From positions 64,904 to 128,903 of the forward strand of contig DAIPJH010000006.1 of assembly GCA_036770365.1 (NCBI GenBank): a stretch of DNA of 64,000 nucleotides. The letters run 5' to 3'. The stretch is from Rickettsiales bacterium (GTDB lineage Bacteria; Pseudomonadota; Alphaproteobacteria; Rickettsiales; UBA998). Positions 6,025 to 61,280 of the stretch are shown here, piece by piece. The notes under the pieces were generated by a model. It did not search any database. It was not told where the DNA came from and was given only the letters and a program-made list of their open reading frames with translations. The translations under genes were made by a program, and so were the position numbers. Each line of letters starts with the position of its first letter. The stretch's first letter is position 1.

Positions 6025-6029
6025 TAATA

Positions 6030-8261: not shown

Positions 8262-8314
8262 GCCCTATGTTTTACACATCTTCACACGAGAATAAAGCAG
8301 GAAATGACCTTCAT

Positions 8315-8347: not shown

Positions 8348-8456
8348 ACTTAAGCGTACGTGATAACGCATGCTGTCCTATGCCTTTTTAACACTTGAAT
8401 CTATGAGAAAACAATGAAGCAACCATGTGACATAGACACCAAAGGAAAATATTAAT

Positions 8457-9095: not shown

Positions 9096-9177
9096 TCATT
9101 TTTAAAAAAAGTAGGGCATTATAAAGTTAAAGTGATATAGACTACCCACAACATATAATAAAAAAGACAAGAACATC

Positions 9178-11958: not shown

Positions 11959-12033
11959 CTCTATTCCTTTTGACATCCTAAATCAAAAGGAGTACCACAC
12001 ACTCGAAAAATAAAAGTTGAGAGTGATCGCCTT

Positions 12034-14001: not shown

Positions 14002-14041
14002 TGATATAACACTTTATACCGCGCTTTCGAGAAGGAACAAG

Positions 14042-17864: not shown

Positions 17865-17888
17865 AATGACTCCAAAAAACATTAAAGG

Positions 17889-32046: not shown

Positions 32047-32403
32047 ATGACCTCACACACACCCTCATCTCCCCTCACTGAGTCAGAGTTCCGCGAGCGT
32101 GCAGATGCAACGCTGGAATATCTGTTTGAGAAGCTTGACGAAGAAGATATGGGCGGCGTTTTGGATCTAGATTTGCAAGAAGGTGTATTGTCTATTGCAA
32201 CCAACACAGGTCACGCTTTTGTGGTCAGCCGCCACGTCCCTAGCAAAGAAATATGGCTTTCTTCTCCACTCACAGGCGGGCTACATTTTGCTTACCCCTA
32301 CAAACAAGATGACTGGTGGCTGCGTGATGGCCGCACCCTCACCGTGGTACTTTCCGAAGAAATTAGTCAAACGACAGGCTGTGAATTCACGCTCGGCACA
32401 TAA
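32047..32403 (+). CDS. cyaY: Frataxin-like iron donor protein CyaY
   Basis: LDLQEGVLSI..FVVSRHVPSKEIWLSSPLTGGLHF..W..DG. Confidence 0.9.
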   Translation: MTSHTPSSPLTESEFRERADATLEYLFEKLDEEDMGGVLDLDLQEGVLSIATNTGHAFVVSRHVPSKEIWLSSPLTGGLHFAYPYKQDDWWLRDGRTLTVVLSEEISQTTGCEFTLGT

Positions 32404-33215
32404 AATGGTGCAAGTTCGTACATAGGCAAACTGGCGTCGCCATAAATAGGATCAGGCGGCGTAAGATGATGCGTTATACCATATGCAATACCTTGTAATA
32501 CCGCCGCGATCACATGTTCGATGTTGGCGTCTGCCCCTGCTACGCGATGCTCGATACGTCGCGCAGTGCTACGCGGTGACCCAGCAAGATGTTCCTTACC
32601 CTGAAGCAATCCTAACCCATCAGGGATACGTAATGCGGTGGTGCGGTTATTATAACCCCAACTAACAGTCACAGGAGCATGAAATCCTGACACTACCCGC
32701 CGCCATGATGCCTCTGATGGCATGAACACGTGAAGATAATCAGGCATCGTCACTAACAATCCCGCCAAGCTCTGCTGAAGCGGCGCACTCAGAACCCCTT
32801 CTTGTTTGATGTAAAGTAGATTACCACCATCGCCTTCGAGGTGGACATGGATATGAATTCCACTGCCATAATCTTGTGCAAATGGTTTGGCTGAGAAATC
32901 TGCCATGAAACCCATCTGTGAAGCGATATCCTGAGCAACGCCGCGGAGCGCACGTGCCTGCGCGACCAATATTTCAAGATCATTCGTTGGAAAAAGTGCA
33001 GCTTCAACCTGCCCCAAACCAGATTCTTCATTGACCGAATGAAGCAACAACCCAGCCTGCTGAATTCGCTCGAGATAGACCGCACGTGTAGCATTATCTG
33101 CAGGCATAGCATCATCAAGACGACGTAGATACCATTCCCACTCCAACGCAACACACGCCACCACGCCACAGCTTTGCTGTAACGCCAGCGACGCGTTATG
33201 CGCACTCAACAACAT
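32367..33215 (-). CDS. Glutamine synthetase-like catalytic domain only
   Basis: LEWEWY, EESGLGQVE, KPF..GSGIHIHVHL, SWGYNNRTTALRIP and RIEHRVAGADAN; no N-terminal beta-grasp domain. Confidence 0.8.
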   Translation of the reverse strand: MLLSAHNASLALQQSCGVVACVALEWEWYLRRLDDAMPADNATRAVYLERIQQAGLLLHSVNEESGLGQVEAALFPTNDLEILVAQARALRGVAQDIASQMGFMADFSAKPFAQDYGSGIHIHVHLEGDGGNLLYIKQEGVLSAPLQQSLAGLLVTMPDYLHVFMPSEASWRRVVSGFHAPVTVSWGYNNRTTALRIPDGLGLLQGKEHLAGSPRSTARRIEHRVAGADANIEHVIAAVLQGIAYGITHHLTPPDPIYGDASLPMYELAPFYVPSVNSQPVV

Positions 33216-36885: not shown

Positions 36886-38013
36886 ATGAGCAATTCTCGC
36901 GGCGATAGCAGTGCAAACACGTTAGACGGCAGCACTTCTGCTGATGAACTTTACGGTGATGGTGGCAACGATACATTAACGGGCTTTGCAGGTAGTGATA
37001 TTCTGGCTGGTGATACAGGCAACGACTCTGTATATGGTGGCGATGGCGATGATACGCTTGATGGCGGCGAAGACAATGACCTTGTCACTGGCGATAACGG
37101 TAATGATGATATTGACGGCGGCAAAGGCAACGATACCATCACGGGTGGCGCGGGTGCAGATACCATCGAAGGCAATACGGGCATTGACTCTATCAACGCA
37201 GGGGCAGACAATGATAGTGTGCTTGGTGGCGATGAAGCTGACACCATCTACGGTGGCGCAGGCGCAGACTGGTTAGAGGGTGGCGCAAGTACGGATAGTA
37301 TTTATGGCGGAACAGGTGCAGTTGATCCTTTTGATGGCGCAGACTATATCAAAGGCGGTGCAGGCAGTGACGCTATTTATGGTAATGGTGGCAATGATAC
37401 TATTTTAGGCGGCACAAACACTTTTGATCCTACAGATGGCAATGACACCATTTACGGTGGCGCAGGTACGGATGCCGTTTATGGCAACGGCGGTAGCGAT
37501 ATGCTTTTTGGTGGCGGCAGTAATGTTGACCCAAATGATGGCGCAGACACCGTCTATGGCGGCGCAGGTTCAGACACCGTCTATGGCAACGGTGGAAACG
37601 ATTCTCTCTATGGTGGCGGCGCAGTAGCAGACCCTAACGATTCCGCTGACATCATCATTGCAGGGGACGGCGATGACTTTGTCTTTGGTAACGGTGGCAA
37701 TGATAGCATCTACGGCAACACAGGCAATGATACCTTTACAGGTGGCAATGGCAATGATTATTTCTACCTCGCAGGTTATGACGGTACAGATCATATCACT
37801 ACATTTGAAAATGCGGGTATCGCGGCGGGCGACACCATCATGATTCTGAGCAATATCAACAACTCAGGCATTATATCTGCAAGTGATGTTCTTGGTCACA
37901 TCAGCTATACTGGCGGCGCAGCGACTATCAACCTTGGTGCATCTATACTCATCATTGATAGCATCACAACAAATAGCCTAACCGCAGACGATTTCAGTAT
38001 TTTTACTGCATAA
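36886..38013 (+). CDS. RTX-type calcium-binding repeat protein
   Basis: Dense GGxGxD repeats with recurring D(P)xDGADxIYG units; C-terminal LTADDFSIF tail. Confidence 0.9.
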   Translation: MSNSRGDSSANTLDGSTSADELYGDGGNDTLTGFAGSDILAGDTGNDSVYGGDGDDTLDGGEDNDLVTGDNGNDDIDGGKGNDTITGGAGADTIEGNTGIDSINAGADNDSVLGGDEADTIYGGAGADWLEGGASTDSIYGGTGAVDPFDGADYIKGGAGSDAIYGNGGNDTILGGTNTFDPTDGNDTIYGGAGTDAVYGNGGSDMLFGGGSNVDPNDGADTVYGGAGSDTVYGNGGNDSLYGGGAVADPNDSADIIIAGDGDDFVFGNGGNDSIYGNTGNDTFTGGNGNDYFYLAGYDGTDHITTFENAGIAAGDTIMILSNINNSGIISASDVLGHISYTGGAATINLGASILIIDSITTNSLTADDFSIFTA

Positions 38014-45201: not shown

Positions 45202-47001
45202 ATGCGCATATCTGGTGAAACAAAGATACCTTCTGAATCAGAAGAAAAACCCAAAGGTAACATCAAAAGCTTGAGATTACTGGGGAATTATCTGCGTCCT
45301 TATCGCCTGCAAATCACAGGTGCGATTATTGCACTATTTTTTACCTCTGGCGCGGTACTTGGCATGGGTACGGGAGTCCGTCATCTTGTAAATGAGGGTT
45401 TAAGCAAAGGCAATTCTGAGCTTCTCAATCAATCATTCTATGTGATTTACGGTGTGATTTTTGTGCTAGCACTAGCGACCTACGCACGTTATTCCTTGGT
45501 GTCATGGGTAGGTGAAAAGGTGGTTGCGGACATTCGTAACGACATCTACCAAAACATCGTGCGCCTCCATACTGGTTATTTTGAAACCACCCGCACAGGC
45601 GAGCTAATGTCACGCCTGACTACCGACACAACCTTACTACAAACAGTAGTCGGCAGCTCGGTTTCTATCGCACTCCGCAATGGATTGATGTTAATAGGAG
45701 GGCTTATCATGCTGATGTGGACAAGCCCACGCCTGACCCTCTTTGTCTTATTGATGGTTCCTGTCGTTGTTGCACCCATTATCATCATGGGGCGCAAAGT
45801 TCGCGCACTCTCACGAGCATCTCAGGATAAAATTGCGGACATAAGCTCTCATGCAGGTGAGACGATCTCTTCCATTCATACCATCCAAGCTCTCTCTCTC
45901 GAAGAACGAGAAAGCCAGCGTTTTGCTGGCTATGTACACGATGCACTCACCACGGCCATAACGCGTATTCGTATTCGCGCCGTACTGACCGCCATCGTCA
46001 TCACCTTGGTGCTTGGGGCGATCATGGGAGTGTTATGGACAGGTGGTGAGGATGTCATACAAGGTAAACTCAGTGCTGGAGAACTCACCTCGTTCGTATT
46101 CTATGCCATGGTTGTCGCAGGCTCGACAGGCGCACTCAGTGAGATCATGGGCGATCTTCAACGCGCCGCAGGTGCGGCTGAACGCCTGATGGAACTCCGT
46201 TCACTTGTCTCTGAGATCACCCCCCCCGAACACCCACAAGCACTACCAGAAAAACTACGTGGTGAGATACATTTTGATCACGTCACCTTTTTTTACCCTT
46301 CTCGCCCTAAAGACAAAGCCTTGTACGACCTTGATCTACATATCAATGCAGGAGAAAAAATCGCACTTGTAGGCCCTTCTGGCGCAGGAAAAAGCACTAT
46401 TTTTCACCTTTTGCTACGCTTTTATGACCCACAGTCAGGTGCGATCTCGCTGGATGGGATAAACCTCAAAGACCTTGACCCACAGGCTTTCCGTCGCCAT
46501 ATTGGGCTTGTCCCTCAAGACCCCGTCATCTTTTCAACCAATGCATGGGAAAATATTCGTTACGGTCGTCCACAAGCAAGTAATGAAGAGGTCTTAATGG
46601 CAGCAAAGCAAGCTGAAGCATTAGAGTTTTTAGAAACATTACCACAAGGACTAAACAGTTATCTTGGCGAGCGTGGCGTACGCCTCTCTGGCGGACAAAA
46701 ACAACGTATCGCCATTGCACGTGCTATCGTACGCAACCCTGATATCTTACTGCTTGATGAAGCGACCTCTGCACTTGATTCTGAGAATGAACGCCGCGTA
46801 CAGTCTGCGCTAGATACATTGATGCAAGGACGTACAGCTCTCATTATTGCCCATCGTTTAGCCACTGTGCAGCATGTTGATCGCATTCTTGTAATGAACG
46901 AAGGACGTATTGTGGCGAGTGGCACACATGACGAACTCATTAAATCATCACCACTTTATGCCAATCTCGCACACTTACAATTTAGTGTAGCGGCAGCGTA
47001 A
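45202..47001 (+). CDS. MsbA-like ABC exporter (TMD-NBD fusion)
   Basis: 6-TM domain; GPSGAGKS, LSGGQKQRIAIARA, LLDEATSALD and IAHRL motifs. Confidence 0.93.
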   Translation: MRISGETKIPSESEEKPKGNIKSLRLLGNYLRPYRLQITGAIIALFFTSGAVLGMGTGVRHLVNEGLSKGNSELLNQSFYVIYGVIFVLALATYARYSLVSWVGEKVVADIRNDIYQNIVRLHTGYFETTRTGELMSRLTTDTTLLQTVVGSSVSIALRNGLMLIGGLIMLMWTSPRLTLFVLLMVPVVVAPIIIMGRKVRALSRASQDKIADISSHAGETISSIHTIQALSLEERESQRFAGYVHDALTTAITRIRIRAVLTAIVITLVLGAIMGVLWTGGEDVIQGKLSAGELTSFVFYAMVVAGSTGALSEIMGDLQRAAGAAERLMELRSLVSEITPPEHPQALPEKLRGEIHFDHVTFFYPSRPKDKALYDLDLHINAGEKIALVGPSGAGKSTIFHLLLRFYDPQSGAISLDGINLKDLDPQAFRRHIGLVPQDPVIFSTNAWENIRYGRPQASNEEVLMAAKQAEALEFLETLPQGLNSYLGERGVRLSGGQKQRIAIARAIVRNPDILLLDEATSALDSENERRVQSALDTLMQGRTALIIAHRLATVQHVDRILVMNEGRIVASGTHDELIKSSPLYANLAHLQFSVAAA

Positions 47002-47098
47002 AGAGTCGACGATTTAAAAGGTAACTTTCAATCTCTACTATACATTTACTATTATTTGTTTTATTTTGCAGCCGCACAATAACTTATAGGGTTTGACC

Positions 47099-49171
47099 AT
47101 GACCGAGACCGCCGAACAAACAACTGAAAAAAAAGAAGCATCATGCTCAACATCGACATGCTGCTATAAACGCCCAATTCCACTTGCATTGCTTGGCACT
47201 GCCGTTGTGCTGGTTGCTGGATACAGCATGCTCTGGTTTAAGCAAGCAGGTCAGCTCAAGGCGGAAGTTGAAAAAACGATTGCGGGATGGAACGATAGTG
47301 CCGTCACAGGTCTTGCTAAAGAAGATTTCTTATTTAGCTATGAAAGCCTCTCAACCACTGGATTTCCTTCAGAGGTTGCGGTACGCATCAACAAACCAAA
47401 ACTCCATTATACAGGCAAAGCCTTTAAGACCGCGGTAGATGCATGGGCTGCTAAAGCACAAGCTCAAACACAAACCGATGGCACGCAAGCAGCACCACTC
47501 CCGACGGCACTTACTAACTTTCCACTTTTACCAAACTGGGTTGAAGATGTTGAAAGCGCAGGCTCTATCTATCTTGGCGGCAACTATTTTTCCCGCACCC
47601 TACGCGTAAAACTTGAAGGTAACACCAGTGGGACGTCAAGCTTTGGCGAACAAAAACTTCCTTGGGCAACCAAAACAGACGGTGGACTTGCATGCGAAGT
47701 GAAATTGACCAGTGCTGCGGGCTTATTTCTTCTAAAAGGCAACTTGCTTACAACGGCAAGCGACACCAAAGAAGCGGCTAAATATATAGAACACGCGGCG
47801 TGTGGCACAAACCCTTATGAATTGATCGCCAGTGATACACAAGAATCCCTACTCTCTTCTGCAGGTACAAAATTTGGGGTGTATAATAACCCTGAAAAAG
47901 ACGACAGCATTATGAATGTTGATTTAGTAGTGAATGTCAAAGATTCTGAATTTGGCAAACGCTTTAATGATTATTATCGCTCTCTTAGCGAAGCATTTGC
48001 TGCTGCTAGCCCCGAAGCCGCATTCTACAGTGTCAAGCAAGCGAGTATGCTAGGCAAACAAAACATCGACATCAACATTCACTATCGCGCACCTAAAGTA
48101 ATGGACCAAAGCGCGGTGGGTGACGCTGATATCGTCTTCAAAAGCTTCAAAATCAACAATGGTGCGATGAGCTTTGATTGGCCATTGAACATACATTTCT
48201 CACATGGCAAAGAAAATTCTTCCTTTTCAATTGATGGGGATATGCGTCTCAAATTCACCAAAGAGTATGATGATGCGTTGGCAGAAGGCATTAAAGGTTT
48301 GCCAAGCTTGATGCAGGGCAAATCTGCGCCGCTTGCACAATCACTTGCAACAGCTGAAAAAAATGCGGGTGGGCGTGAAAAACTAGAAGCTGCACTAGCT
48401 AACCTTGCACCGCGCATGAGCGAACTTGGCACAATTCGCCTGACGACCAAAGCCGAATTCAAAGGTGCAAACCCACGCGAAGGCATTGCTCCAACAGGTT
48501 CACTCAAAGCAGATGTTATTCAATTCATGACCGATAAATACGGCATTCAGCTCAGCGGTAACGCGGTGTTGGATACGGTCAAGGTCGATCTTTCATTACG
48601 TTGTGTGAACTGCGATAGCATGGTGGATGACACAATTGGTTATCTCGTTGCAGCACAAGACGTGCTGGCATGGGCAGATCCAAGCCTCAAAAGCCACATG
48701 CTTGATAGCAGCACCCCATCTAAACTGAAAAAGTTCATTGCTGCTGTCAGTACTACAGATGACAAAGAGCCTACCACTCGCGTCGTAACCATCAAGGATA
48801 ATGGACAAGGTGATGTACGTATCTCAGGTAAAGGCATGCTAGAAGTGATGATGCAATGGATGCAAGCTTTCCTTCCTAATGGTGGGCCGGCAGCAGACAT
48901 GCAAAAACAAATGATGATGCATCCGCCGGTAGAAAACAGTGAAGCACCAGCAGGATATAAAGATGATGAAACTCACATTGATCCTATGACAGGTCAACCT
49001 GTCATTGTACCAGAAGGAAAAGAAACTGCTCCAGCTTCTTCTAAAGCCGAGCAGCCTTCTACCGAAGCAACTCCTGAAGGTGAAGCGGAAGCTCCTGATA
49101 TGTCTCAGGCACAACCTACCGCAAAAGAGATTGAATCAGAAGCACAAGAAGCATTTGATAAAAAACAATAA
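47099..49171 (+). CDS. Hypothetical membrane-anchored periplasmic protein
   Basis: N-terminal TM segment (IPLALLGTAVVLVAGYSMLW); acidic disordered C-terminus; about 690 aa. Confidence 0.75.
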   Translation: MTETAEQTTEKKEASCSTSTCCYKRPIPLALLGTAVVLVAGYSMLWFKQAGQLKAEVEKTIAGWNDSAVTGLAKEDFLFSYESLSTTGFPSEVAVRINKPKLHYTGKAFKTAVDAWAAKAQAQTQTDGTQAAPLPTALTNFPLLPNWVEDVESAGSIYLGGNYFSRTLRVKLEGNTSGTSSFGEQKLPWATKTDGGLACEVKLTSAAGLFLLKGNLLTTASDTKEAAKYIEHAACGTNPYELIASDTQESLLSSAGTKFGVYNNPEKDDSIMNVDLVVNVKDSEFGKRFNDYYRSLSEAFAAASPEAAFYSVKQASMLGKQNIDINIHYRAPKVMDQSAVGDADIVFKSFKINNGAMSFDWPLNIHFSHGKENSSFSIDGDMRLKFTKEYDDALAEGIKGLPSLMQGKSAPLAQSLATAEKNAGGREKLEAALANLAPRMSELGTIRLTTKAEFKGANPREGIAPTGSLKADVIQFMTDKYGIQLSGNAVLDTVKVDLSLRCVNCDSMVDDTIGYLVAAQDVLAWADPSLKSHMLDSSTPSKLKKFIAAVSTTDDKEPTTRVVTIKDNGQGDVRISGKGMLEVMMQWMQAFLPNGGPAADMQKQMMMHPPVENSEAPAGYKDDETHIDPMTGQPVIVPEGKETAPASSKAEQPSTEATPEGEAEAPDMSQAQPTAKEIESEAQEAFDKKQ

Positions 49172-50484: not shown

Positions 50485-50586
50485 CTCAACAGCACTGTAT
50501 TTAAACGCGTATTTCTTCAGTCCTACAGCAAGTTAGCAGCATCATTACTTTAATAAACAAAATAACTAAAAAAAGAACTTGAAATA

Positions 50587-50601
50587 TTAATAAAAAATTA
50601 A
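50587..50601. promoter_or_regulatory. CtrA-type site
   Basis: TTAA-TAAAAAA-TTAA about 200 bp upstream of the AlgE-like gene. Confidence 0.4.
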
Positions 50602-50798
50602 TATATTCCTGTACACGCAAAACAGAAGCAAGCCACAACAATGATTATGAATCAATTAAAATACGCTTGCATGTCTTTGTAAATTAGCATAACAACCCAG
50701 ACAAAATACCACCTATTCAGCTAGGTCTTTATATTCAAGCTTTTGCTGACGGTCGGCTGTATGGTTTTAAATAACAACAAATATAGGCTTGTGTGATT

Positions 50799-53264
50799 AT
50801 GACAACGTTCAATGTGAAAGATTTCGGTGCTAAAGGTGATGGCGTAACCAATGATACCGCAGCAGTTCAAGCTGCGCTTGATGCTGCGCATGCAGCGGGC
50901 GGCGGCACAGTATATGCCCCAACAGGTACGTATATCGTAACAGGTCACACCGAGCCATCCGATGGCGCATTACTCATCTATAGCAACACCACCTTTTATG
51001 GTGATGGCATGGGCCTTACCAATATTAAAGTGGCTGATGGCTGGAATATGAAAATGACAGGCGTCGTGCGCACTCCATTCAACGTTGAGTCCACTAATGT
51101 CAACGTCAATAACCTGACCATTGATGGTAATCGTGATAATATTTCTCCATCTGTTAAGATCGATGGCTGGTTTAATGGTGTTTACCCTGATCACCCAGGT
51201 CAATGCAGCAATATTACACTTGATCGCATGGAAATCAAAAATTGCTCTGGCTATGGCTTTGATCCACACGAACAAACTGTGAATCTTAGCATCACCAACA
51301 GCGTTGCTCATGGCAACCATTTGGATGGTTTCGTGGCAGATTACATCATTGGTGGCGTTTACAGCAATAACGTAGCCTATAACAACGATCGCCATGGATT
51401 TAATGTTTGTACTAGCTCAAAAGACATCACGATTTCGAACAACGTATCGTATGACAATGGCGCGAACGGTATTATGGTGCAACGTGGCAGCGAAAATATC
51501 GCATGGCCTAAAAACATTTCCATTCATGATAACGAGGTTTACGGCAATACACTTGAGGGTGTTTTAGTGAAGCTTGCCAATTACACTGATGTGTATAACA
51601 ACCTTATCCATCACAATGGCAAAGCAGGTGTCCGCCTTTACGGAACAGACCATGATAATGTCCATGATAACCACATCTATAGCAATTCCACCAGCTCACC
51701 TGCTTCTTATGAAGGTATTCGCCTTGAAGCATATGACGATACCTCAGGTGTTTCTGGCAAATATTATAACACCACGAACAATAAAGTGACCAACAACGTG
51801 ATTGAATCTGGCAATGTTGCTGCTTATTACGGTGTACGCGAAGGCGCAGGCACGGACTATAACACCCTTACAGGCAACACCATCACTGGCTTTAAGACCT
51901 CTGTCGCTCTAACAGGTTCACACAGCACATGGGATCATTTTGGATCAATTGATTATTCACAGGCCAATAATCTTCTTGGCACAACAGGTGCGGACGACAT
52001 TAATGGGTTTGCGGGCAATGACACTATTGACGGTGATGCAGGACGCGACACACTTACAGGTGGCACAGGATTAGATAATTTCAAATTCAGTCATCTCGGT
52101 GACAGCACCCGCGTTGCCGCAGATAAGATCATGGATTTTGCCTCTGGTCAGGATGTGATTGATGTCCGCGATCTTGGTTTCACCAGTTTTATTGGTAGCG
52201 GCAATACAACGTTGCTGAATGAACTACGCATCAGTTATAGCAGCAGCACCAACACCAGCTATATCAAAAATGATGAAACAGGCTTTGAAGTTGCGCTCGT
52301 TGGCGATTTACGCAACACGCTCAAAGCAAGTGACTTTCTCTTTAACACAGGCAATATTGCCGACGACAACTTCTTCATTGGCTCATCACGCAACGACCTC
52401 TTCAACGGTGGACTTGGCAATGACACCATCGACGGTAGCGCGGGGCGTGACACACTCACAGGTGGCGTAGGTGCAGATGTTTTCCGTTTTAGCAACACAA
52501 ACGATAGCCTCTTCACAGGTAGTATGTATGATCGCATCACTGATTTTGAAGCAGGGGTCGATAAAATTGATTTAAGTGGTCTAGGATTTACAACACTTAC
52601 CACCAACAAAACAACCGCAGCAGGTGAATTACGCGTTGCGTATAGTGTGACATCAGACCGCAGCTATATTCGTAGCGAACAATCTGATTTTGAATTTTAC
52701 CTTTCTGGTGACTATCGTGGCAAACTCACCAACAGCGATTTCATCTTTTCTAAATCAACCGTTGCAGGTCAAACCTTTAATGGCGTAGGCGCAGACGAAA
52801 CCTATACGGGCGGCAATGGAGACGATACCATCAAGGGGAATGGCGGCAGCGATTCTCTTAGCGGTGGCGCAGGTCATGATAGCATCAATGGCGGTTCGGG
52901 TAACGACACCGTTTATGGCGGCATCGGTAATGATACTATCAATGGCAATGATGGTTTTGATAGCCTCTTTGGTGGCGATGGCAATGATCGCATTTATCTT
53001 GCAGCTGATACGGACACAGCAACAGGTGGTGCGGGCGGCGACATTTTCACATTTACGGCGACCAGTGGTGTGATCACAGACTTTGATGTGGCGCATGACG
53101 TAATTGATTTGCGTAACTACGCAGTGACCTATGCTAATCTCACCATAGCAACGGTGGCAACAGATACAGTCATCGACGTGACCGTTGGCAGTTCGAACAT
53201 TTCACACATCATACTGACTGGCATCACTAGCGACACATTACTTGATACCGACTTTATTTTTTAA
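50799..53264 (+). CDS. Secreted AlgE-type mannuronan C5-epimerase/lyase (A-module, R-modules, RTX)
   Basis: NVKDFGAKGDG, DGWFNG, YGFDPHEQT, DGFVADY, NDRHGFNV, VQRG and DDTSGVSGKYYNT match the Azotobacter AlgE A-module; DFxxGxDxIDLSGLGF R-module segments follow. Confidence 0.88.
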   Translation: MTTFNVKDFGAKGDGVTNDTAAVQAALDAAHAAGGGTVYAPTGTYIVTGHTEPSDGALLIYSNTTFYGDGMGLTNIKVADGWNMKMTGVVRTPFNVESTNVNVNNLTIDGNRDNISPSVKIDGWFNGVYPDHPGQCSNITLDRMEIKNCSGYGFDPHEQTVNLSITNSVAHGNHLDGFVADYIIGGVYSNNVAYNNDRHGFNVCTSSKDITISNNVSYDNGANGIMVQRGSENIAWPKNISIHDNEVYGNTLEGVLVKLANYTDVYNNLIHHNGKAGVRLYGTDHDNVHDNHIYSNSTSSPASYEGIRLEAYDDTSGVSGKYYNTTNNKVTNNVIESGNVAAYYGVREGAGTDYNTLTGNTITGFKTSVALTGSHSTWDHFGSIDYSQANNLLGTTGADDINGFAGNDTIDGDAGRDTLTGGTGLDNFKFSHLGDSTRVAADKIMDFASGQDVIDVRDLGFTSFIGSGNTTLLNELRISYSSSTNTSYIKNDETGFEVALVGDLRNTLKASDFLFNTGNIADDNFFIGSSRNDLFNGGLGNDTIDGSAGRDTLTGGVGADVFRFSNTNDSLFTGSMYDRITDFEAGVDKIDLSGLGFTTLTTNKTTAAGELRVAYSVTSDRSYIRSEQSDFEFYLSGDYRGKLTNSDFIFSKSTVAGQTFNGVGADETYTGGNGDDTIKGNGGSDSLSGGAGHDSINGGSGNDTVYGGIGNDTINGNDGFDSLFGGDGNDRIYLAADTDTATGGAGGDIFTFTATSGVITDFDVAHDVIDLRNYAVTYANLTIATVATDTVIDVTVGSSNISHIILTGITSDTLLDTDFIF

Positions 53265-53319: not shown

Positions 53320-54246
53320 ATGGCACAGATCATGGGTAGCAATTTTTCAAGTGATTATTTGTTTGGCACTGATCAAAGCGACTCCATCTGGGGCGGATCT
53401 GGGAATGATACCCTGATCGGCAACGGCGGTGACGATACACTCGTTGGTGGGCTTGGCCTTAACATCATGGATGGTGGCAATGGTAATGACAGCATCACAG
53501 GTGGCTCTAATCAAGACAGCATTATTGGTGGTAAAGGCAATGACACGTTACTTGGTGGGTGGAGCTTTGACACCATTTATGGTGGCGATGGTTATGACAC
53601 CATAAATGGCGGTGTAAGTCCTGATGAATTACATGGTGATACTGGCAATGATAGTATTATTGGCGAAAACGGTGGTGACAGTATTTGGGGTGGCACAGGC
53701 AACGACACGATCGATGCTGGCGATAATGATGACAGAATATACGGCGAAGACGGCGCAGATTCTATATTAGGCGGCAAAGGTAATGACAGCATTGATGCTG
53801 GTACGGCGAATGATACCATTGACAGCGGAGCAGATAAAGACACCATTAATGGTGGCACGGGGCTTGACCTTATTCACGGTGGTGCAGGCAATGACGTTGT
53901 CCATGGTGATGGCTCGAATGACGTAATTTATGGCGATGATGGTAACGACTTTGTCTATGGTGACGGCGGCGCAGATACGGTGTATGGCGGTATCGGCTTA
54001 GATACACTTTACGGCGGAAGTGAAGTTGACCGCTTTGTTGTACAGTACGATAGTGACACCATTCGTGATTTTACCAAAGGCGAAGTCATCGATGTAACCT
54101 ACTTCGCAACCAATTTTGCGAGCTTTACTCAAAGCCATGTTGGTGCAAATACTATGGTTGATTTCACCACTACAGGCGGTACAGCAGTGCATCTTATACT
54201 AGAAAATTATCTTGTAGATGTTGCAGCAACAGATTTTGCATTCTAA
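53320..54246 (+). CDS. RTX-type calcium-binding repeat protein
   Basis: Continuous GGxGxD repeats; tail LILENYLVDVAATDFAF; RBS AGGAGG. Confidence 0.9.
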   Translation: MAQIMGSNFSSDYLFGTDQSDSIWGGSGNDTLIGNGGDDTLVGGLGLNIMDGGNGNDSITGGSNQDSIIGGKGNDTLLGGWSFDTIYGGDGYDTINGGVSPDELHGDTGNDSIIGENGGDSIWGGTGNDTIDAGDNDDRIYGEDGADSILGGKGNDSIDAGTANDTIDSGADKDTINGGTGLDLIHGGAGNDVVHGDGSNDVIYGDDGNDFVYGDGGADTVYGGIGLDTLYGGSEVDRFVVQYDSDTIRDFTKGEVIDVTYFATNFASFTQSHVGANTMVDFTTTGGTAVHLILENYLVDVAATDFAF

Positions 54247-54320
54247 CAATTTGCTAGGTGATCTGTCGCTTAAGCTTAAACGGCTATAGTATTACATGCC
54301 TTACAAAAGGCACACTCGCA

Positions 54321-54343
54321 GGGGGAGCATCGCTCCCCCTTTT
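54321..54343 (+). terminator. Rho-independent terminator
   Basis: GGGGGAGC-ATC-GCTCCCCC-TTTT. Confidence 0.8.
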
Positions 54344-54444: not shown

Positions 54445-56388
54445 ATGACTACACGTGTTACTGAAATTAACCGCTTGTCCACTAGCGTTGCAGAAACGCA
54501 AGGCAATGACTATAGCTCTGGTGGCATATTTTCACCTGACGAGGACACAGTTCTTTTTTCTAGCTATGCCAATAACCTCGTTGCAAATGACACCAATGGT
54601 GTAGCTGACATCTTTATTAAAGATATTAACTCAGGTATTATCACCAGAATTTCAACAGACGTAACGGACGCACAAGCAAACAATAACTCACTTGACGCCG
54701 TTTTTTCTCCTGATGGCAGCCAAATCGCATTCACAAGTACAGCCACCAATCTGATTGCAGGCGACACCAATGGTCAATCAGATATTTTTGTTAAAGACCT
54801 AGGCACAGGTGTCGTCACACGCTTTTCAACGAGCGCGGCAGGAGTCCAAGGGAATTTCGGGTCTTCCAACGCAATATTTTCCCCTGACGGCACAAAAATA
54901 GCATTTGAAAGTAATGCTAACAATTTGGTCGCGGGCGACACCAATTTTTCAAAAGATATTTTTATCAAAGATCTAGGAACAGGTGCAATAACACGCGTTT
55001 CCACAGATATTGCAAGTACAGAAAGTGATGGGGATTCCTATTATGCACAATTTTCTCCAGATGGTAGCTCTATTGCTTTTGTGAGTACCGCCACAAATTT
55101 GATTGCAGGAGATACCAATGGGGTAGCAGATGTCTTTATTAAAGATCTAGGCACAGGCACGGTAACACGCGTATCTACAGACGCAACGGGCGCAGAAGGC
55201 AACCAAGACTCAAGCATTTATTCAACGTACACAGATGCTTACCACTTAGCCTTTTCCCCCGATGGCAACAAGATCGCCTTTACCAGCTACGCTGATAATT
55301 TAGTGACGGGCGACATAAATAATGATGCAGATGTTTTTGTTAAAGATTTAAATACAGGTACTATTACCAATATTTCTGCTAACGTTGCAGAAGAATTTTA
55401 TGAATCTTATAATTCTGTCTTTTTACCAGACGGCAACAGTATTGCTTTTTTAAAACGCATAGAATTATTAGGATTTGGAACTCCCCCTCTAGAGCAAACC
55501 TATATTTACCTTAAAAACCTTACATCAGGCGCGCTCACCCTTATTTCTAAAAATGTCGATGGAGCTATCGCCAACAGTGAATTCAATGATATCAATTTTT
55601 CTACTGACGGCATGCATTTTATTGCCTCTAGCTATGCAACCAATTTAGTTGGAAGTGATACCAATGCCACGCAAGATATCTTTCTCTTTACGCTAGAAGA
55701 CATAATACCTACCCCATCACACATAGGACTCACACTGTACGGTAGCTCATCCAACCGTGAAATCACTGGCTCATCAGATGATGACCTACTTTTTGGTGGC
55801 ACAGGATATTATGATCCAGAAGACGATGCAGATATTCTTGATGGTGGTAAAGGCAATGATCGTATCTATGGTAATGGCGGCAATGACAAGCTCATCGGTG
55901 GCTACGGACATGACAAGCTTTATGGCGGCGAAGGTGATGACCTGATATTTGGTGGCAACAATCGTATTGTAGACCCTACAGATGATGCAGATACTATTGA
56001 TGGCGGCGGTGGCGAAGATACCATTTATGGTAATGGCGACAATGATATCATTTCTGGTGGTACTGGCAATGACCTGATATTTGGTGGATACGGCAATGAC
56101 ACCATCTATTTAGGTGTTGGTAACGACACACTATACGGGAATGAAGACCTCGATCGTTTCTATATTGATAGCAACAATGGTCATGACAGCATCATGGATT
56201 TTTCAAAGGGTGATATACTCATCATCCGCCCAGATATTAATCACGGTGACATCGTGAATATCGACGACGTCCTCGATCACACCACTTACACCAATGAAGG
56301 AGCATGGATCGACCTTGGAAATGGCAACAACGTACTACTGCACGCTGTTACCAGCCTTTCAGAACACGATATCACCATGTGGAGCTAA
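54445..56388 (+). CDS. TolB/PD40-like beta-propeller plus RTX repeat protein
   Basis: Repeats of FSPDG..IAF.S.A.NL.AGDTNG..DIFIKDL.TG..TRVST, followed by GGxGxD repeats. Confidence 0.88.
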   Translation: MTTRVTEINRLSTSVAETQGNDYSSGGIFSPDEDTVLFSSYANNLVANDTNGVADIFIKDINSGIITRISTDVTDAQANNNSLDAVFSPDGSQIAFTSTATNLIAGDTNGQSDIFVKDLGTGVVTRFSTSAAGVQGNFGSSNAIFSPDGTKIAFESNANNLVAGDTNFSKDIFIKDLGTGAITRVSTDIASTESDGDSYYAQFSPDGSSIAFVSTATNLIAGDTNGVADVFIKDLGTGTVTRVSTDATGAEGNQDSSIYSTYTDAYHLAFSPDGNKIAFTSYADNLVTGDINNDADVFVKDLNTGTITNISANVAEEFYESYNSVFLPDGNSIAFLKRIELLGFGTPPLEQTYIYLKNLTSGALTLISKNVDGAIANSEFNDINFSTDGMHFIASSYATNLVGSDTNATQDIFLFTLEDIIPTPSHIGLTLYGSSSNREITGSSDDDLLFGGTGYYDPEDDADILDGGKGNDRIYGNGGNDKLIGGYGHDKLYGGEGDDLIFGGNNRIVDPTDDADTIDGGGGEDTIYGNGDNDIISGGTGNDLIFGGYGNDTIYLGVGNDTLYGNEDLDRFYIDSNNGHDSIMDFSKGDILIIRPDINHGDIVNIDDVLDHTTYTNEGAWIDLGNGNNVLLHAVTSLSEHDITMWS

Positions 56389-57593: not shown

Positions 57594-58790
57594 TTACGCC
57601 GCCAATTTCAGAAGTTTTAATGCTTCATAATTGACCACTTCACCGCCGACACGACGAGTAGTATAGAATTTTACAAATGGTTTATCTGTAAACGGATCAC
57701 GCAAAATACGTAATCCAATGCGGTCAACGATCAAATATGCCTGAGAAAAATCGCCCACTGCAACCGAAAGTGAATTCGCCGCTGCGACAGGCATATCCGA
57801 CGCTTGATGCACAGGAATCCCCATCAACGTATCTGGTGCGCCTGCGGCTAAACCCGGTTGCCACAAATACTGATTGGTGGTAGATTCTTTAAGCAAACGC
57901 ACCGCTTGCACCACGCTGCGATTCATCAAGAAACTTGCGCCGCGTGCGTACGATTCTTTTAAACTATAGTAGAGTGCGATAAGGCTGTCTGCCGTGACAA
58001 CGGCTGATGTGCCAGAATTAATCTGTTCAACTTGTCCCCAACTTGTCCCCGCCGCATAGGACAAAATCCCTTTAGGCTGACCAGAACCCGAACCTGAGAT
58101 AAACGCGGTCGCCTCCATACGCGCAAATTTATTAGCGACCTTCTCTGCCACCCACGCTTCGACATCAATTGCCGCATCATCAAGCAATTTCTGCGTAGCT
58201 TTTGGCTGTGCATACATCTCAAAGGTTGCCACAGAATGCTTACCAATTTGTGGGGTGGTGGTATCGCTGACCGCACCTGTTTCCGTCGTCCAGTTCGCCG
58301 CAGAATCGCCGGTATCTTCAATGACATCCAATGTATCCGTAGAAATGGTCTCAACACGAGCAAGACCACGAAGTGGTGATGACTCACGGATAATCTTCGC
58401 AACACCCACACTCATCTCATTCGTCACAAGATAACCGCCATCCGCATCTACCCCACGCGAAAGTGATTTCACCTGCAACGCTTCCAGCCCACCGTCCATG
58501 CCTTTGCGAAGATAGTTCACGAAGGCTTTCTTATATTCACTGGTCTCTGGCGTTGTATACGCATGGGTTTTTAAACCAACATCAGGACGTAGACTCGCTG
58601 TTTCCAAACGAGATATTTGCTCCTTAACGTTATCAATGGTTTCGTTCATGCGTGCCATGTTCACGTCATGAAGCGGATCCGAAAAACCACGAGTTTTTTT
58701 CTCGCGTTCCTTCAGTTCATTCTGCGAACGCATATTTTCCCATGCATTACTGATCTCATTAAGCTTTGATACAACTTGATATTCACTCAT
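57594..58790 (-). CDS. HK97-fold major capsid protein (RcGTA g5-like)
   Basis: RBS GAGG before ATG 58790; delta-domain DPL segment; DGGYLV, SPLR, ATQKLLDD, LWQPG, RDPFTDKPFVKFYTTRRVGG and ALKLLKL motifs. Confidence 0.93.
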   Translation of the reverse strand: MSEYQVVSKLNEISNAWENMRSQNELKEREKKTRGFSDPLHDVNMARMNETIDNVKEQISRLETASLRPDVGLKTHAYTTPETSEYKKAFVNYLRKGMDGGLEALQVKSLSRGVDADGGYLVTNEMSVGVAKIIRESSPLRGLARVETISTDTLDVIEDTGDSAANWTTETGAVSDTTTPQIGKHSVATFEMYAQPKATQKLLDDAAIDVEAWVAEKVANKFARMEATAFISGSGSGQPKGILSYAAGTSWGQVEQINSGTSAVVTADSLIALYYSLKESYARGASFLMNRSVVQAVRLLKESTTNQYLWQPGLAAGAPDTLMGIPVHQASDMPVAAANSLSVAVGDFSQAYLIVDRIGLRILRDPFTDKPFVKFYTTRRVGGEVVNYEALKLLKLAA

Positions 58791-58930
58791 AATAAACCTC
58801 ATAAAAACGTGGATAAAAGTATTATTCTTAATAAAAATGTACAACCTTCACAAAAACTTCATTTTTCTATTGTGTTAATGATTGGTAATAGTTATCTTAG
58901 TAGTGAAGCGATGAGACGTTCGGAGAACCC

Positions 58931-59398
58931 ATGAAAATTACGACCAGTTTATTGACCCACCGCGTTAGCATGTCCGATTCTTACAACCCATCATTTCAGT
59001 CAGAGTCTCCTGCCGATGTCATGGCACGCAAGGCCTGTGAAAAAGCCGCGATGAAACAAAATGCCCTTGCTTTTTCCATCAGCCAAGATGATGTGGTCAT
59101 CACCGCTGTTTCCGCTGCCCTCTCTCGCGCACTCACCGACCCCAAATTCAATGCCCTGCCGGAAAAACAAAAAACAGAAGCCGCTTCACGTTTGGCAGAG
59201 CAATACATGCATGGACAACGTTTGGTACAAGCTCTCACTAGTGCAATGAACAACCCTTCAACACTAGCAACCCAGCTAAAGTTCAATTCTCGTGAAGATG
59301 ATACAATTGCCAATGTCTTTGAAACCATCATTGATTCTACTCGTCCAAAGCTAACTCCCGAATCGTCGCAAATGGCATTCATTGGGATAATGCAGTAG
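58931..59398 (+). CDS. Hypothetical protein inserted in the head module
   Basis: 155-aa helical ORF on the opposite strand, overlapping the protease stop. Confidence 0.55.
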   Translation: MKITTSLLTHRVSMSDSYNPSFQSESPADVMARKACEKAAMKQNALAFSISQDDVVITAVSAALSRALTDPKFNALPEKQKTEAASRLAEQYMHGQRLVQALTSAMNNPSTLATQLKFNSREDDTIANVFETIIDSTRPKLTPESSQMAFIGIMQ

Positions 59399-59924
59399 CC
59401 TCCTGAATCAAACGCAGCAAACGATCTGCCGCTTGTATAAATTCTGGTGAGGTCTCATCATATGCATTGGAATGTGCCGTTTTTACCACCGTTACCTTAG
59501 CCTCTGGATTAGATGGAAACGTCACCAATGAAATTTCCCACAATTTAAGGGATTTGATTTCACGCACGCGAGTATCTGGATTCATGACATAGCGCACCGG
59601 CGAATAACCGATCGATAACCCTGTGATCGCACCACTTTTCAATAATGCATACGCATCCCGCGCCCGCGTCACGTCTAATAGCAACCGACCTCGCATAAAA
59701 AGCCCATGCGTATCTTCGTAAAGCTGCTCAATCACACCAATTGGCTCCGCCGTATCATGTTGCCATAACAATTTGATATCTTCAGGACGTGTAAATGCGA
59801 GTGTTTCGGCAAATGCACCACGCATCACCACATCACGTTGCGCATCGACCACATCAAAGACGCTACCATACCCCACAAATACTCCCACCTCATCAACAGA
59901 TTTAATGGATAGCTCACAGGACAT
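59379..59924 (-). CDS. HK97-family prohead protease (RcGTA g4-like)
   Basis: FVGYGSVFD..D.V.RGAF, LLWQHD..PIG, GLSIGY and EISLVTFPSN motifs; start uncertain. Confidence 0.93.
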   Translation of the reverse strand: MSCELSIKSVDEVGVFVGYGSVFDVVDAQRDVVMRGAFAETLAFTRPEDIKLLWQHDTAEPIGVIEQLYEDTHGLFMRGRLLLDVTRARDAYALLKSGAITGLSIGYSPVRYVMNPDTRVREIKSLKLWEISLVTFPSNPEAKVTVVKTAHSNAYDETSPEFIQAADRLLRLIQEATALSQ

Positions 59925-60041
59925 TGTCGCATGTTCACACATCGACTGACTAATTTTTCGTTCGTAAAACATATAACTCTCCAGTTACAAGTTGTAAGTT
60001 ATGCGTTATGATTATGCTTACTGAGAACTCAGGACTCATAA

Positions 60042-61280
60042 CTAATTAACACCAAACACCAGCTTTCTCTTCTCATCCGCCGACAGGAAATCTGCATCCT
60101 TGACACGACTCCACAGACTTTCACGACGCGGACTAAGTGCGCTGATAGACTCTGTATCCGCACTTAAGGTCAGACGGTGGTCAAACATGGGACATAACCA
60201 CCCATTGAGCGACGACAACGTATTGTCTAACATTGGCAAAATGGTCTGCTCCCATAACGCAAGCCGTGCTTCTGCCAAATTCGCATAAGTATTATCCCCT
60301 GTAATCCCCAAGAGTTGCGGCGGCACTCCAAATGCCAGCGCGATCTCACGCGCCGCAGCATTACGCGCTTCTAAAAAATCCATATCTTTCGGACTAAGGC
60401 TCATTTCACGCCAATCCAATCCACCTTCTAAGAGCAGTGGACGCCCCGCATTATGCGAGCCTGAGAATTGTTCATCGACTTGCGTTTTGATACGATAATA
60501 TTGATCTTCCGTGAGTTGACCACTACCGCCATCCCCCGCACGCACCACCAACGCACCACTTGGACGCGCACCATTTTGCAAGAGTGCCTGATTCCATGCG
60601 GATGATTGATTATGCTGATCAATACTATAGGCAGCAGCCTCCACGGGCGATAACCCATACCAATCATCGTTCGGATGAAACTCTTTGATATGCAATACTC
60701 GTGATACACCAGTAATGCTATCAACAGGAAAATCCGTGGCATTTTCTCCCACTTGATAACGATACGCTGCGGGAACACCACCTCGTCCTGCTAAAATCGT
60801 CACACGGTCGGGGCGCAACAAATGCAATTCACGTGGAGCTTCCCCCATAGGCGATACTGCCTGAATATAAACATTTCCCGCGATCAAACGATAATGCGTC
60901 AATTTTTCAAAAAAACCTTTACCAGATTCTAGTGGTGACGGCTTAGCGATCAACGCAGCAAGAGGATGGCTGGCATCCACCACCCGCCCATCACCATCGC
61001 GCACCAACACAGTAACACTTGCCAACCCCTTTGCGATCATCATCATCGCCGCATGGGCAACCACGTTACGCGTATAGGCTTCCTCAGCGAAACGGCGATA
61101 GGTACGCCCAGACCACACAGGCTGCATTGGCGGTTGAAGATAGGATTGCACCGAACCATACCAGCTTGGCACAGCCATCTTAACATCAGGCGGCGTCGCC
61201 ACTGCCTGCTTATTGAATAATATCTGTGATAATCTTTCAGAGAACCGCGTCCTCTGTTGTAATGTTGCCGCCATAGCCAC
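60042..61280 (-). CDS. HK97-family portal protein (RcGTA g3-like)
   Basis: LHLLRPDRV, FHPNDDWYGLSP, ALLQNGARPSGAL, LLEGGLDW, SPKDMDF and FGVPPQLLG motifs. Confidence 0.94.
   Translation of the reverse strand: MAMAATLQQRTRFSERLSQILFNKQAVATPPDVKMAVPSWYGSVQSYLQPPMQPVWSGRTYRRFAEEAYTRNVVAHAAMMMIAKGLASVTVLVRDGDGRVVDASHPLAALIAKPSPLESGKGFFEKLTHYRLIAGNVYIQAVSPMGEAPRELHLLRPDRVTILAGRGGVPAAYRYQVGENATDFPVDSITGVSRVLHIKEFHPNDDWYGLSPVEAAAYSIDQHNQSSAWNQALLQNGARPSGALVVRAGDGGSGQLTEDQYYRIKTQVDEQFSGSHNAGRPLLLEGGLDWREMSLSPKDMDFLEARNAAAREIALAFGVPPQLLGITGDNTYANLAEARLALWEQTILPMLDNTLSSLNGWLCPMFDHRLTLSADTESISALSPRRESLWSRVKDADFLSADEKRKLVFGVN

Follow-up and report, generated by a model that had tools for sequence, protein, structure and literature searches.

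The predicted epimerase gene and its surroundings

The stretch of DNA analysed here (64 kb, referred to below as the window) carries a plus-strand gene for an AlgE-type protein, followed by the gene for a small protein built of RTX repeats only (Table 1). The open reading frame comprises 823 codons, from a GTG at 50793 to 53264, and contains an in-frame ATG at 50799. We consider this ATG the likely start because it agrees with a database protein that is 100% identical to the 821-aa product (P0001) and with the N-termini of the homologues. The gene itself, the YGFDPHE motif and the equivalent of AlgE4 D178 lie exactly at the positions given in the preliminary description. Three minus-strand reading frames within the gene (50970-51395, 52259-52609 and 52755-53096) had no support and are regarded as shadow ORFs. 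A second copy or a fragment of the A-module was looked for across the 64 kb and none was found.

Table 1. Features of the epimerase locus, with positions in the window
Feature	Position	Strand	Basis or remark
Sigma-70-like promoter match, 10/12	50579..50607	+	Consensus match only; within the 314-nt gap after pabB
AlgE-type protein gene, 821 aa	50799..53264	+	ATG start preferred; stop codon 53262-53264
A-module, aa 1-380, right-handed parallel beta-helix with (predicted) catalytic site	50799..51938	+	phmmer vs PDB and AF2 model
YGFDPHE, aa 152-158, equivalent to AlgE4 Y149-E155 (catalytic Y, D, H)	51252..51272	+	A-module alignment
Codon of D181 in FVADY, equivalent to AlgE4 D178	51339..51341	+	A-module alignment
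R-module 1, aa 385-518	51951..52352	+	2ml2 (AlgE6 R-module), query 394-519, E 6.5e-16
R-module 2, aa 519-655	52353..52763	+	2agm (AlgE4 R), query 521-655, E 1.2e-16; also 2ml1
RTX block, aa 656-750, ~9 GGxGxD nonapeptides	52764..53048	+	CyaA RTX match, E 5e-24
C-terminal non-repeat tail, aa 751-821, ends ...DTDFIF	53049..53261	+	Presumed type I secretion signal region
RTX-repeat-only protein, 308 aa, 55 nt downstream of the epimerase gene	53320..54246	+	Pfam; pairing kept in relative L002
Terminator-like hairpin, strong (9-bp stem, 7 GC pairs, T-run)	54320..54340	+	After the RTX gene

Between the epimerase gene and the 308-aa RTX gene no terminator-like site was found, and the two genes are probably co-transcribed. 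The gene order unknown-pabB-epimerase recurs in two relatives (L002 and L004), the first of which also keeps the RTX gene, with a product 57% identical to the small RTX protein described here. Identity to the syntenic orthologues is 69% and 63% for the A-module, compared with 59% and 47% for the neighbouring pabB product, and this better conservation of the A-module points to purifying selection. As for the host, the best named relatives of ParC belong to MAGs labelled 'Rickettsiales bacterium' and 'Alphaproteobacteria bacterium'; the taxonomy is thus taken from the labels of MAGs whose ParC is 66-71% identical. The window also carries GTA-like head genes; both lines of evidence agree with the alphaproteobacterial host that had been proposed beforehand.

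Modules, fold and active site of the predicted protein

The succession of an AlgE-type A-module, R-modules and RTX repeats had been read from the sequence earlier, and this was borne out by phmmer searches against the PDB as well as by superposition of a structural model. Residues 6-380 matched the A-modules of AlgE6 (5lw3, E = 3.5e-119) and AlgE4 (2pyg, E = 6.7e-113), and the alignment with AlgE A-modules runs from end to end (6-380 versus 3-373) with two short gaps only. The region that follows (~394-519 and ~521-657) matched the R-module structures 2ml2, 2agm, 2ml1 and 2ml3 with E values of ~1e-16, and the two R-modules are 48% identical to each other (E = 3e-31). Residues 660-756 resemble RTX beta-rolls in the same search, and the RTX block at aa 656-750 is a generic beta-roll that is distinct from the AlgE R-module. 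The overall module order is A-R-R-RTX. The Pfam matches were PF12708, PF13229, PF05048, Peptidase_M10_C and HemolysinCabind (7 matched stretches); the phmmer and Pfam scores lie far beyond chance. The tail of the downstream RTX protein, which ends in ...ATDFAF, resembles the tail of the epimerase.

The A-module was folded with AF2 from a 17-sequence alignment (pLDDT 95.4); a single-sequence AlphaFold model of the full-length protein reached a pLDDT of 34 and was discarded. The A-module model superposed on 5lw3 with a TM-score of 0.95 and an rmsd of 1.2 Å (1.2-1.7 Å over 5lw3 and 2pyg, at the same TM-score). The next-best unrelated folds reached TM-scores of at most 0.75, and AlgG reached 0.58. 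A generic pectate-lyase-like or GH28 beta-helix was therefore rejected: GH28 enzymes, pectin lyases and tailspikes gave E values of at least 1e-10 and TM-scores of at most 0.75, compared with 1e-37 and 0.95 for AlgE6. The assignment to AlgE survived this check, with AlgE6 and AlgE4 as the best matches both by sequence and by fold.

The catalytic residues Y149, D152, H154 and D178 (AlgE4 numbering) are all kept in the predicted epimerase, and the alignment with AlgE proteins indicates that the hydrogen-bond network of D119, D173, R195 and H196 is kept as well (network and groove residues as listed in the AlgE7 paper, PMC8824271). The residue that precedes YGFDPHE is glycine 151, which corresponds to the epimerase-type G148. 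At AlgE positions 117, 119, 122, 148-155, 172, 173, 178, 195 and 196 the protein reads K-D-F-G-YGFDPHE-L-D-D-R-H, a signature shared exactly with AlgE6, AlgE1 and AlgE2.

Proposed function, substrate and competing explanations

We propose, with a probability of roughly 0.7, that the gene product is an AlgE-type uronate C-5 epimerase that is secreted, depends on calcium and acts at the polymer level. Against this proposal, identity to characterised A-modules is no more than 53-58%, and membership of the family is no guarantee of activity, as AlgY (below) illustrates. By analogy with AlgE4, AlgE6 and AlgE7, a polymannuronate or alginate chain would be held in the groove of the beta-helical A-module, the His of YGFDPHE would remove H-5 of a mannuronate residue and the Tyr would re-protonate C-5 from the opposite face to yield guluronate, with the carboxylate neutralised by the two Asp residues. 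Ca2+ would be bound by both R-modules and by the RTX block, and the R-modules may also aid polymer binding, again by analogy. The analysis itself shows homology, fold, conserved residues, module order, synteny and composition; from these we infer the Ca2+ dependence, the secretion route, the substrate and the product alike.

AlgE-type enzymes leave the cell via a type I secretion system (EexDEF-like), with a C-terminal signal and no N-terminal signal peptide. The N-terminus of the predicted epimerase has no hydrophobic stretch and no signal peptide is visible in it; the C-terminal tail may direct export, and the type I system for this would lie in another part of the genome. A type I ABC/MFP/OMP set was sought in the 64-kb window and was absent. 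An ABC transporter at 45202-47001 was rejected as part of such a system: it satisfies the MsbA-related model TIGR02204, and its scores for the type I secretion models are far under the cut-offs.

Can the lineage supply its own substrate? Alginate or mannuronan synthesis genes were sought in the 64 kb and none was found, which confirms what had been said of the window before, and in the literature covered alginate production is documented for Azotobacter and Pseudomonas only, with no alphaproteobacterial producer (PMC4444821). Alg44-like (PilZ plus MFP), Alg8-like and AlgD-like genes occur in MAGs of Alphaproteobacteria and in marine metagenomes, and the Alg8-like synthase family is labelled 'mannuronan synthase' by JGI. 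In two related loci (the L005/L090 lineage) an AlgE-like gene adjoins such an Alg44/Alg8/AlgD-like cassette in divergent orientation; such a pairing is seen in the 'Rickettsiales' MAG STL-PRO43. The best PDB match of the cassette's AlgD-like protein is GDP-mannose 6-dehydrogenase (E = 1.3e-76; 262 bits versus 190 bits for UDP-glucose dehydrogenase), and one related cassette additionally encodes PMM and GDP-mannose pyrophosphorylase. A general linkage of AlgE-like and Alg8-like genes was rejected, as none of 80 metagenomic Alg8-like cassettes had an A-module within ~10 kb; the linkage holds for the L005/L090 lineage only. A self-made substrate for the predicted epimerase is plausible, and the enzyme may act either on mannuronan of its own cell or on foreign alginate. 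We suggest only tentatively that the lineage makes its own gel-forming, G-block alginate: a minimal, c-di-GMP-controlled mannuronan synthase of the Alg44/Alg8/AlgD type, with its genes outside the window, would work together with secreted AlgE-type epimerases. If this is true, enzymatically G-tailored bacterial alginate would reach beyond Azotobacter and Pseudomonas as a wider trait of uncultured, often aquatic Alphaproteobacteria.

The lack of alginate genes in the window and the narrow range of documented producers would also suit an enzyme that applies the same fold and chemistry to another polymer, namely an exopolysaccharide that contains glucuronate or another uronate and is not mannuronan. 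Such a substrate would be in keeping with the position of the protein in a separate lineage of the family, and with the finding that AlgE-like genes outside the Gammaproteobacteria mostly stand without polysaccharide genes nearby (none were found near the Phenylobacterium AlgE-like genes L086, L087 and L088). We nevertheless consider it unlikely, since the tested catalytic and groove-network residues all agree with the residues of proven mannuronan epimerases and the fold is nearly identical to that of AlgE4 and AlgE6, and since the AlgE-adjacent alphaproteobacterial cassettes point to mannuronan by their dehydrogenase, and by the mannuronan synthase/Alg8 label of their synthase family, as does a related cassette by its PMM and GDP-mannose pyrophosphorylase genes.

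The catalytic tetrad is identical to that of AlgE7, and the preliminary description had pointed out that these residues can support beta-elimination, so that the enzyme might be a bifunctional epimerase/lyase or a dedicated AlgE7-type alginate lyase used for degrading alginate or detaching from it. The lyase determinants of AlgE7 are E117, Y122, R148 and K172, of which R148 is decisive: R148G alone abolishes lyase activity, although quadruple mutants of AlgE7 retain a trace of it (PMC8824271). All four are replaced here by K117, F122, G148 and L172, as in all pure epimerases, and epimerisation without chain cleavage is therefore predicted. Among the sequences aligned, the E/Y/R/K signature was confined to five from the Azotobacter group, and the four of these kept in the tree formed a clade with 100% bootstrap, far from our protein. 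From its sequence we thus predict an epimerase and not a lyase, and a lyase role appears quite improbable.

Still less probable, in our view, is a catalytically silent homologue acting as a calcium-binding surface, matrix or adhesin protein. A precedent exists in AlgY of A. vinelandii, a member of the AlgE family that is inactive on mannuronan, and the gene stands in a run of RTX proteins, five of which are encoded in the window. However, the residues known to be necessary for activity are all conserved, and the A-module is the best-conserved part of the locus among the orthologues, which would not be expected of a mere scaffold.

That the gene was acquired horizontally in recent times, from Azotobacter or Pseudomonas, can be given hardly any credence and is largely refuted: the AlgE family has a patchy phyletic distribution and the identity to characterised, gammaproteobacterial A-modules (~53-58%) is fairly high across classes, but the composition of the gene (GC 0.458, GC3 0.438, codon-usage distance 0.785) matches the window means (0.467, 0.419 and 0.951), the gene keeps its neighbours in both syntenic relatives and diverges in step with them, and in the A-module tree it belongs to a separate clade with 93% bootstrap, which lies apart from those of Azotobacter and Pseudomonas and is not nested within the gammaproteobacterial one. 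The earlier suggestion of a horizontally acquired enzyme thus does not hold as a recent event, and the epimerase gene is a long-standing resident of an uncultured alphaproteobacterial lineage. The sister relation of its clade received 11% bootstrap, and an ancient transfer between classes is conceivable.

Comparison with characterised epimerases

To our knowledge, all characterised AlgE-type epimerases come from Azotobacter and Pseudomonas. The preliminary description had given AlgE1-7 and PsmE as the known range of the family, which is incomplete: we found numerous uncharacterised AlgE-like homologues, in 231 clusters (50% identity, E<=1e-30), among them sequences from Phenylobacterium, Asticcacaulis and Rickettsiales MAGs. 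The AlgE-type family is therefore much wider than the literature states. A scan of GTDB genomes with the A-module of the window alone found no close relative among the species representatives. A scan with the family alignment returned 325 relatives, and because the best 80 of the 325 were almost all from Pseudomonas, it says little about alphaproteobacteria.

With AlgE6 and AlgE4 of A. vinelandii (5lw3, 2pyg/2pyh; R-modules 2agm, 2ml1-3), to which its A-module is 53% and ~49% identical, the predicted epimerase has in common the catalytic tetrad, D119/D173/R195/H196 and K117/F122/G148/L172, as well as the order of A- and then R-modules, the RTX Ca2+ motifs and the missing N-terminal signal peptide. 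It differs from them in a two-residue insertion after position 115 and in its architecture, with two R-modules, an extra RTX block and a tail, where AlgE4 is A-R and AlgE6 is A-R-R-R. The host is also different: it is an uncultured alphaproteobacterium (~46% GC), and the 64-kb window lacks alg genes.

The closest A-modules of a characterised lineage (55-58% identity) are those of PsmE from Pseudomonas syringae and of 1350-aa Pseudomonas homologues. PsmE likewise has a separate RTX module in addition to its A and R modules, but our protein lacks its M module and its N (SGNH acetyl-hydrolase) module, and deacetylation of the substrate is therefore not expected of it. The bifunctional enzymes AlgE7, AcAlgE2/3 and 8ja4 share the fold, the catalytic tetrad and the R-module (E = 3e-106) and differ at the four determinants, where AlgE7-like proteins carry E-Y-R-K; 8ja4, annotated as 'alginate epimerase/lyase', has R and K at the positions of our G and L.

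AlgG is a periplasmic, Ca2+-independent mannuronan C-5 epimerase. It resembles the predicted enzyme in its beta-helix fold, reaction and active-site logic, and the structural match is remote (~12% identity at the TM-score given above); an NCBIfam search with our protein gave no AlgG match. Unlike AlgG, the protein is without a signal peptide and is encoded outside any alg operon.

AlgE-type epimerases are tools for tailoring the G-block content, and hence the gelling, of alginate, and a divergent member from a low-GC, uncultured alphaproteobacterium, with each tested catalytic position intact, could show a new epimerisation pattern. Its occurrence raises the question whether alginate-like polymers arise and mature outside Pseudomonadaceae, via the widespread Alg44/Alg8/AlgD-like cassettes. 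In comparison with the known systems, the predicted epimerase is a well-preserved relative within an established enzyme family and not a new mechanism or type of system.

Family membership and predicted activity of the AlgE-type protein

The 50.8-53.3 kb interval of the window contains a single long ORF, which lies on the + strand, opens with GTG 50793 and closes with the stop codon at 53262-53264. Because the database copy of its product (P0001, 821 aa, 100% identical) begins at ATG 50799 and homologues begin with MTTFNV, MATYNV or MALFNV, we took 50799 as the start. The preliminary description, made from the sequence alone, had chosen the same start and had placed YGFDPHE (aa 152-158, nt 51252-51272) and the Asp of FVADY (aa 181, first nt 51339) exactly. 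Minus-strand ORFs within the gene lacked support and were rejected as shadow ORFs. No second copy or fragment of the catalytic A-module was found by tblastn of this module against the window.

Is this an AlgE-type protein or a generic pectate-lyase-like beta-helix? In sequence searches of the PDB, residues 6-380 aligned end to end with the A-modules of AlgE6 (5lw3, E 3.5e-119) and AlgE4 (2pyg, E 6.7e-113), residues ~394-519 and ~521-657 matched AlgE6/AlgE4 R-modules (2ml2, 2agm, 2ml1; E ~1e-16) and residues 660-756 matched the RTX beta-rolls of CyaA and lipases. Pfam assigned PF12708, Beta_helix and NosD, together with Peptidase_M10_C in two stretches and HemolysinCabind in seven. The structure model covers the A-module only (AlphaFold with a 17-sequence family alignment; pLDDT 95.4, pTM 0.93), as a single-sequence run of the whole protein gave a pLDDT of 34 and was discarded. 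Foldseek placed the model on AlgE6 (TM 0.95, rmsd 1.2 Å) and AlgE4 (TM 0.95, 1.3-1.7 Å), and the next, unrelated folds (phage tailspikes, GH28 enzymes, AlgG) reached TM <=0.75 with E >=1e-10. Given the module matches and this structural fit, the AlgE-type identity proposed earlier holds and the pectate-lyase-like alternative falls.

The preliminary description had allowed for a lyase as well as an epimerase. According to work on AlgE7 (PMC8824271), bifunctional enzymes invariably carry E117, Y122, R148 and K172, positions at which K, F, G and L stand in pure epimerases, and R148G alone removes the lyase activity of AlgE7. Among 129 aligned A-modules, numbered on AlgE6, the window protein has the signature K-D119-F-G-YGFDPHE-L-D173-D178-R195-H196, which is identical to that of AlgE6, AlgE1 and AlgE2 and common to 94 of the modules. 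The E/Y/R/K (or A/Y/R/K) signature occurred in only five sequences, of the Azotobacter group, and the four of these kept in a neighbor-joining (NJ) tree formed one clade (100% bootstrap). The solved 'alginate epimerase/lyase' 8ja4 likewise has R and K at the lyase-determining positions in the PDB-search alignment. Since the window signature is of the epimerase type and R148G abolishes lyase activity in AlgE7, a lyase is disfavoured, and a monofunctional epimerase is predicted from these residues. AlgY is a precedent for an inactive AlgE homologue.

Coordinates of modules, neighbouring genes and related loci
Feature	Position	Remarks
A-module	aa 1-380
R1	aa 385-518
R2	aa 519-655	48% identical to R1, E 3e-31
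Generic RTX block	aa 656-750	~nine GGxGxD nonapeptides
Non-repeat tail	aa 751-821	ends DTDFIF
Promoter-like site	50579-50607	10/12; inside 314-nt gap after pabB
308-aa protein	53320-54246	RTX repeats only; directly 3' of epimerase
Strong hairpin + T-run	54320-54340	3' of 308-aa RTX gene
647-aa protein	54445-56388	PD40/TolB-like beta-propeller + RTX repeats
Two further RTX-repeat proteins	16782-17882 (-), 36886-38013 (+)
Two curlin-repeat proteins	29225-29704, 29941-30882	CsgA/CsgB-type
ABC transporter	45202-47001	passes MsbA-related model
692-aa protein	47093-49171	no significant Pfam/NCBIfam match; sub-threshold DUF2125, E 0.028; N-terminal hydrophobic segment; acidic Pro/Glu-rich C-terminus
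HK97-type major capsid, prohead protease, portal genes	57594-61280 (-)	alone beside mtgA; no tail genes
Terminase-like gene	22815-24260 (+)	~34 kb from capsid/protease/portal genes
282-aa ORF	32367-33215 (-)	covers only positions 76-278 of 344 of glutamine synthetase catalytic-domain profile
102-aa ORF, L004	9562-9870	between pabB and epimerase gene; faint PF12708 similarity; no window counterpart
L005 (= L018; JAXMDT010000008.1)	3780-12082	P0067 gene, four genes divergently adjoining
Alg44-like gene, L005		392 aa; MFP/HlyD-like C-terminal part, weak PilZ match
Alg8-like gene, L005		536-aa GT2; JGI homologue names 'mannuronan synthase'/'glycosyltransferase Alg8', 47-60% identity
AlgD-like gene, L005		nucleotide-sugar dehydrogenase; best solved relative P. 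aeruginosa GDP-mannose 6-dehydrogenase AlgD, E 1.3e-76
RTX protein gene(s), L005		fourth member of adjoining set
L090	2271-11952	same arrangement as L005
L089	236-5372	canonical PilZ motifs RxxxR, DWSLGG; dehydrogenase fused to receiver domain
L109	3565-13366	PilZ match above Pfam threshold; AlgC-like phosphomannomutase (PMM), AlgA-like GDP-mannose pyrophosphorylase/PMI; RTX+DUF4114 protein directly after synthase
L086 (Phenylobacterium terrae JBHUEY010000001.1)	4563-14158	two tandem giant AlgE-like proteins, 1758 + 1385 aa

Expression, secretion and origin of the gene

The epimerase gene has the promoter-like site upstream, the 55 nt that separate it from the 308-aa RTX gene hold nothing terminator-like, and the hairpin follows the RTX gene; the two genes thus likely form an operon. 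Secretion, as claimed earlier, is still probable: the window protein has no hydrophobic N-terminal signal and its tail resembles that of its RTX neighbour (...ATDFAF). AlgE proteins of A. vinelandii are exported via the EexDEF type I secretion system (T1SS), according to PMC6140867 and PMC6959600. T1SS genes are absent from the 64-kb window; its ABC transporter was rejected as a T1SS component in favour of the MsbA-related model. The five RTX proteins encoded in these 64 kb suggest that the organism relies heavily on type I secretion. The curlin-repeat proteins hint at amyloid fibres as a matrix component, encoded by the genome that also carries the putative alginate-modifying enzyme.

In keeping with the earlier assignment, the host belongs to the Alphaproteobacteria and is uncultured. 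The closest matches of ParC (88-92% identity) are unnamed metagenome proteins, and the best-matching proteins with a name (66-71%) come from 'MAG: Rickettsiales bacterium' and 'Alphaproteobacteria bacterium'. The HK97-type and terminase-like genes resemble a head module, dispersed or reduced, of a GTA-like element (or a remnant of a prophage); scattered GTA-like genes of this kind are typical of Alphaproteobacteria. The window also carries ordinary chromosomal genes (flgG, flgA, flgH, parC, folE, phaA, phaB, ubiE, panC, zapE, ispH, ftsY, the MsbA-related ABC exporter, pabB and mtgA). The glutamine synthetase-like ORF is possibly part of a gene that has been truncated or split.

Was the epimerase gene acquired horizontally, as had been proposed? 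Its GC (0.458), GC3 (0.438) and codon-usage distance (0.785) compare with window means of 0.467, 0.419 and 0.951. The order unknown protein (616-692 aa; in the window, the 692-aa protein), pabB, epimerase recurs in the syntenic relatives L002 and L004, with respective identities of 56% and 31%, 59% and 47%, and 66% and 57% (A-module 69% and 63%), and in L002 the 308-aa RTX gene is retained as well (57%). By these identities the epimerase gene has co-diverged with its neighbours, and constraint within the locus is strongest on the A-module. In the NJ tree, a simple distance tree in which most leaves lack taxonomy, the window protein and five metagenomic sequences form a group (93% bootstrap) outside the Azotobacter/Pseudomonas clade, to which this group is sister with only 11% support. 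Composition, synteny with co-divergence and the separate clade argue against a recent acquisition; long ago the gene may have passed between classes, one way or the other. The small ORF in L004 could be what is left of an A-module N-terminus that was once duplicated.

Mannuronan-synthase cassettes and the source of substrate

As described earlier, the window contains no alg genes, and tblastn with Alg8-, Alg44- and AlgD-like queries was also empty. A synthase cassette does adjoin the gene for P0067, an AlgE-like protein of the 'Rickettsiales' MAG STL-PRO43 whose A-module is 53% identical to that of the window protein. The dehydrogenase of this locus (L005) scores 262 bits to AlgD versus 190 bits to the best UDP-glucose dehydrogenase. 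At L005 and the related contig L090 the Alg44-like description comprises a PilZ-like N-terminus, a TM segment and an MFP part; the called start at L005 is probably too far downstream, the true N-terminus with QRRHFR lying upstream. The arrangement has the look of a minimal locus for making and epimerising mannuronan, here in the MAG of an alphaproteobacterium.

On the gene content of L005, L090, L089 and L109, cassettes assignable to the Alg44/Alg8/AlgD type exist in Alphaproteobacteria and marine metagenomes, and one lineage physically couples such a cassette to an AlgE-type gene. This coupling is not general. Among 80 metagenomic Alg8-like loci (L091-L170), 69 have an Alg44-like gene and 34 an AlgD-like one, but no A-module lies within ~10 kb of any of the 80; many of the loci with both Alg44- and Alg8-like genes are apparently marine. 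The examined part of these cassettes showed no recognisable AlgK, AlgG, AlgX or AlgL, and three other AlgE-like contexts contained no polysaccharide genes. The window organism may either make its own substrate or act on a foreign one.

Breadth of the family and comparison with known enzymes

When 1.84 billion cluster representatives were scanned in full with HMMER, 231 clusters reached E<=1e-30 and 1163 reached E<=1e-10. A word-indexed search gave 475 proteins at E<=1e-20, including some from Phenylobacterium terrae, Asticcacaulis sp. AC402 and Rickettsiales and other Alphaproteobacteria MAGs, as well as a single protein from a eukaryote dataset. GTDB species genomes contained 325 relatives, the best 80 of which were almost all from Pseudomonas. 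Such homologues carry generic names ('glycosyl hydrolase family 28-related', 'parallel beta-helix repeat protein'), and in the searchable literature characterised AlgE-type enzymes come from Azotobacter and Pseudomonas only. The window protein is a so far uncharacterised addition to this known family. P0105, a eukprot protein of 1116 aa with an A-module 58% identical to that of the window protein and He_PIG and Endonuclease_1-type domains, reflects either bacterial contamination or transfer into a eukaryote.

We give a probability of about 70% to the reading that the gene is native to this lineage and encodes a monofunctional mannuronan C-5 epimerase that depends on Ca2+ and is exported by a T1SS. 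This keeps the AlgE-type, alphaproteobacterial and probably secreted parts of the original interpretation and drops the lyase and, as a recent event, the horizontal acquisition. Such an enzyme might be of use in alginate tailoring, and it prompts a question that can be tested, whether alginate-like polymers occur outside Pseudomonadaceae. Each giant protein of L086 has two A-modules with He_PIG Ig-like domains between them, an architecture not described for the Azotobacter enzymes. The A-R-R-RTX order of the window protein recalls the layout of PsmE (PMC4444821), minus its M and N modules.
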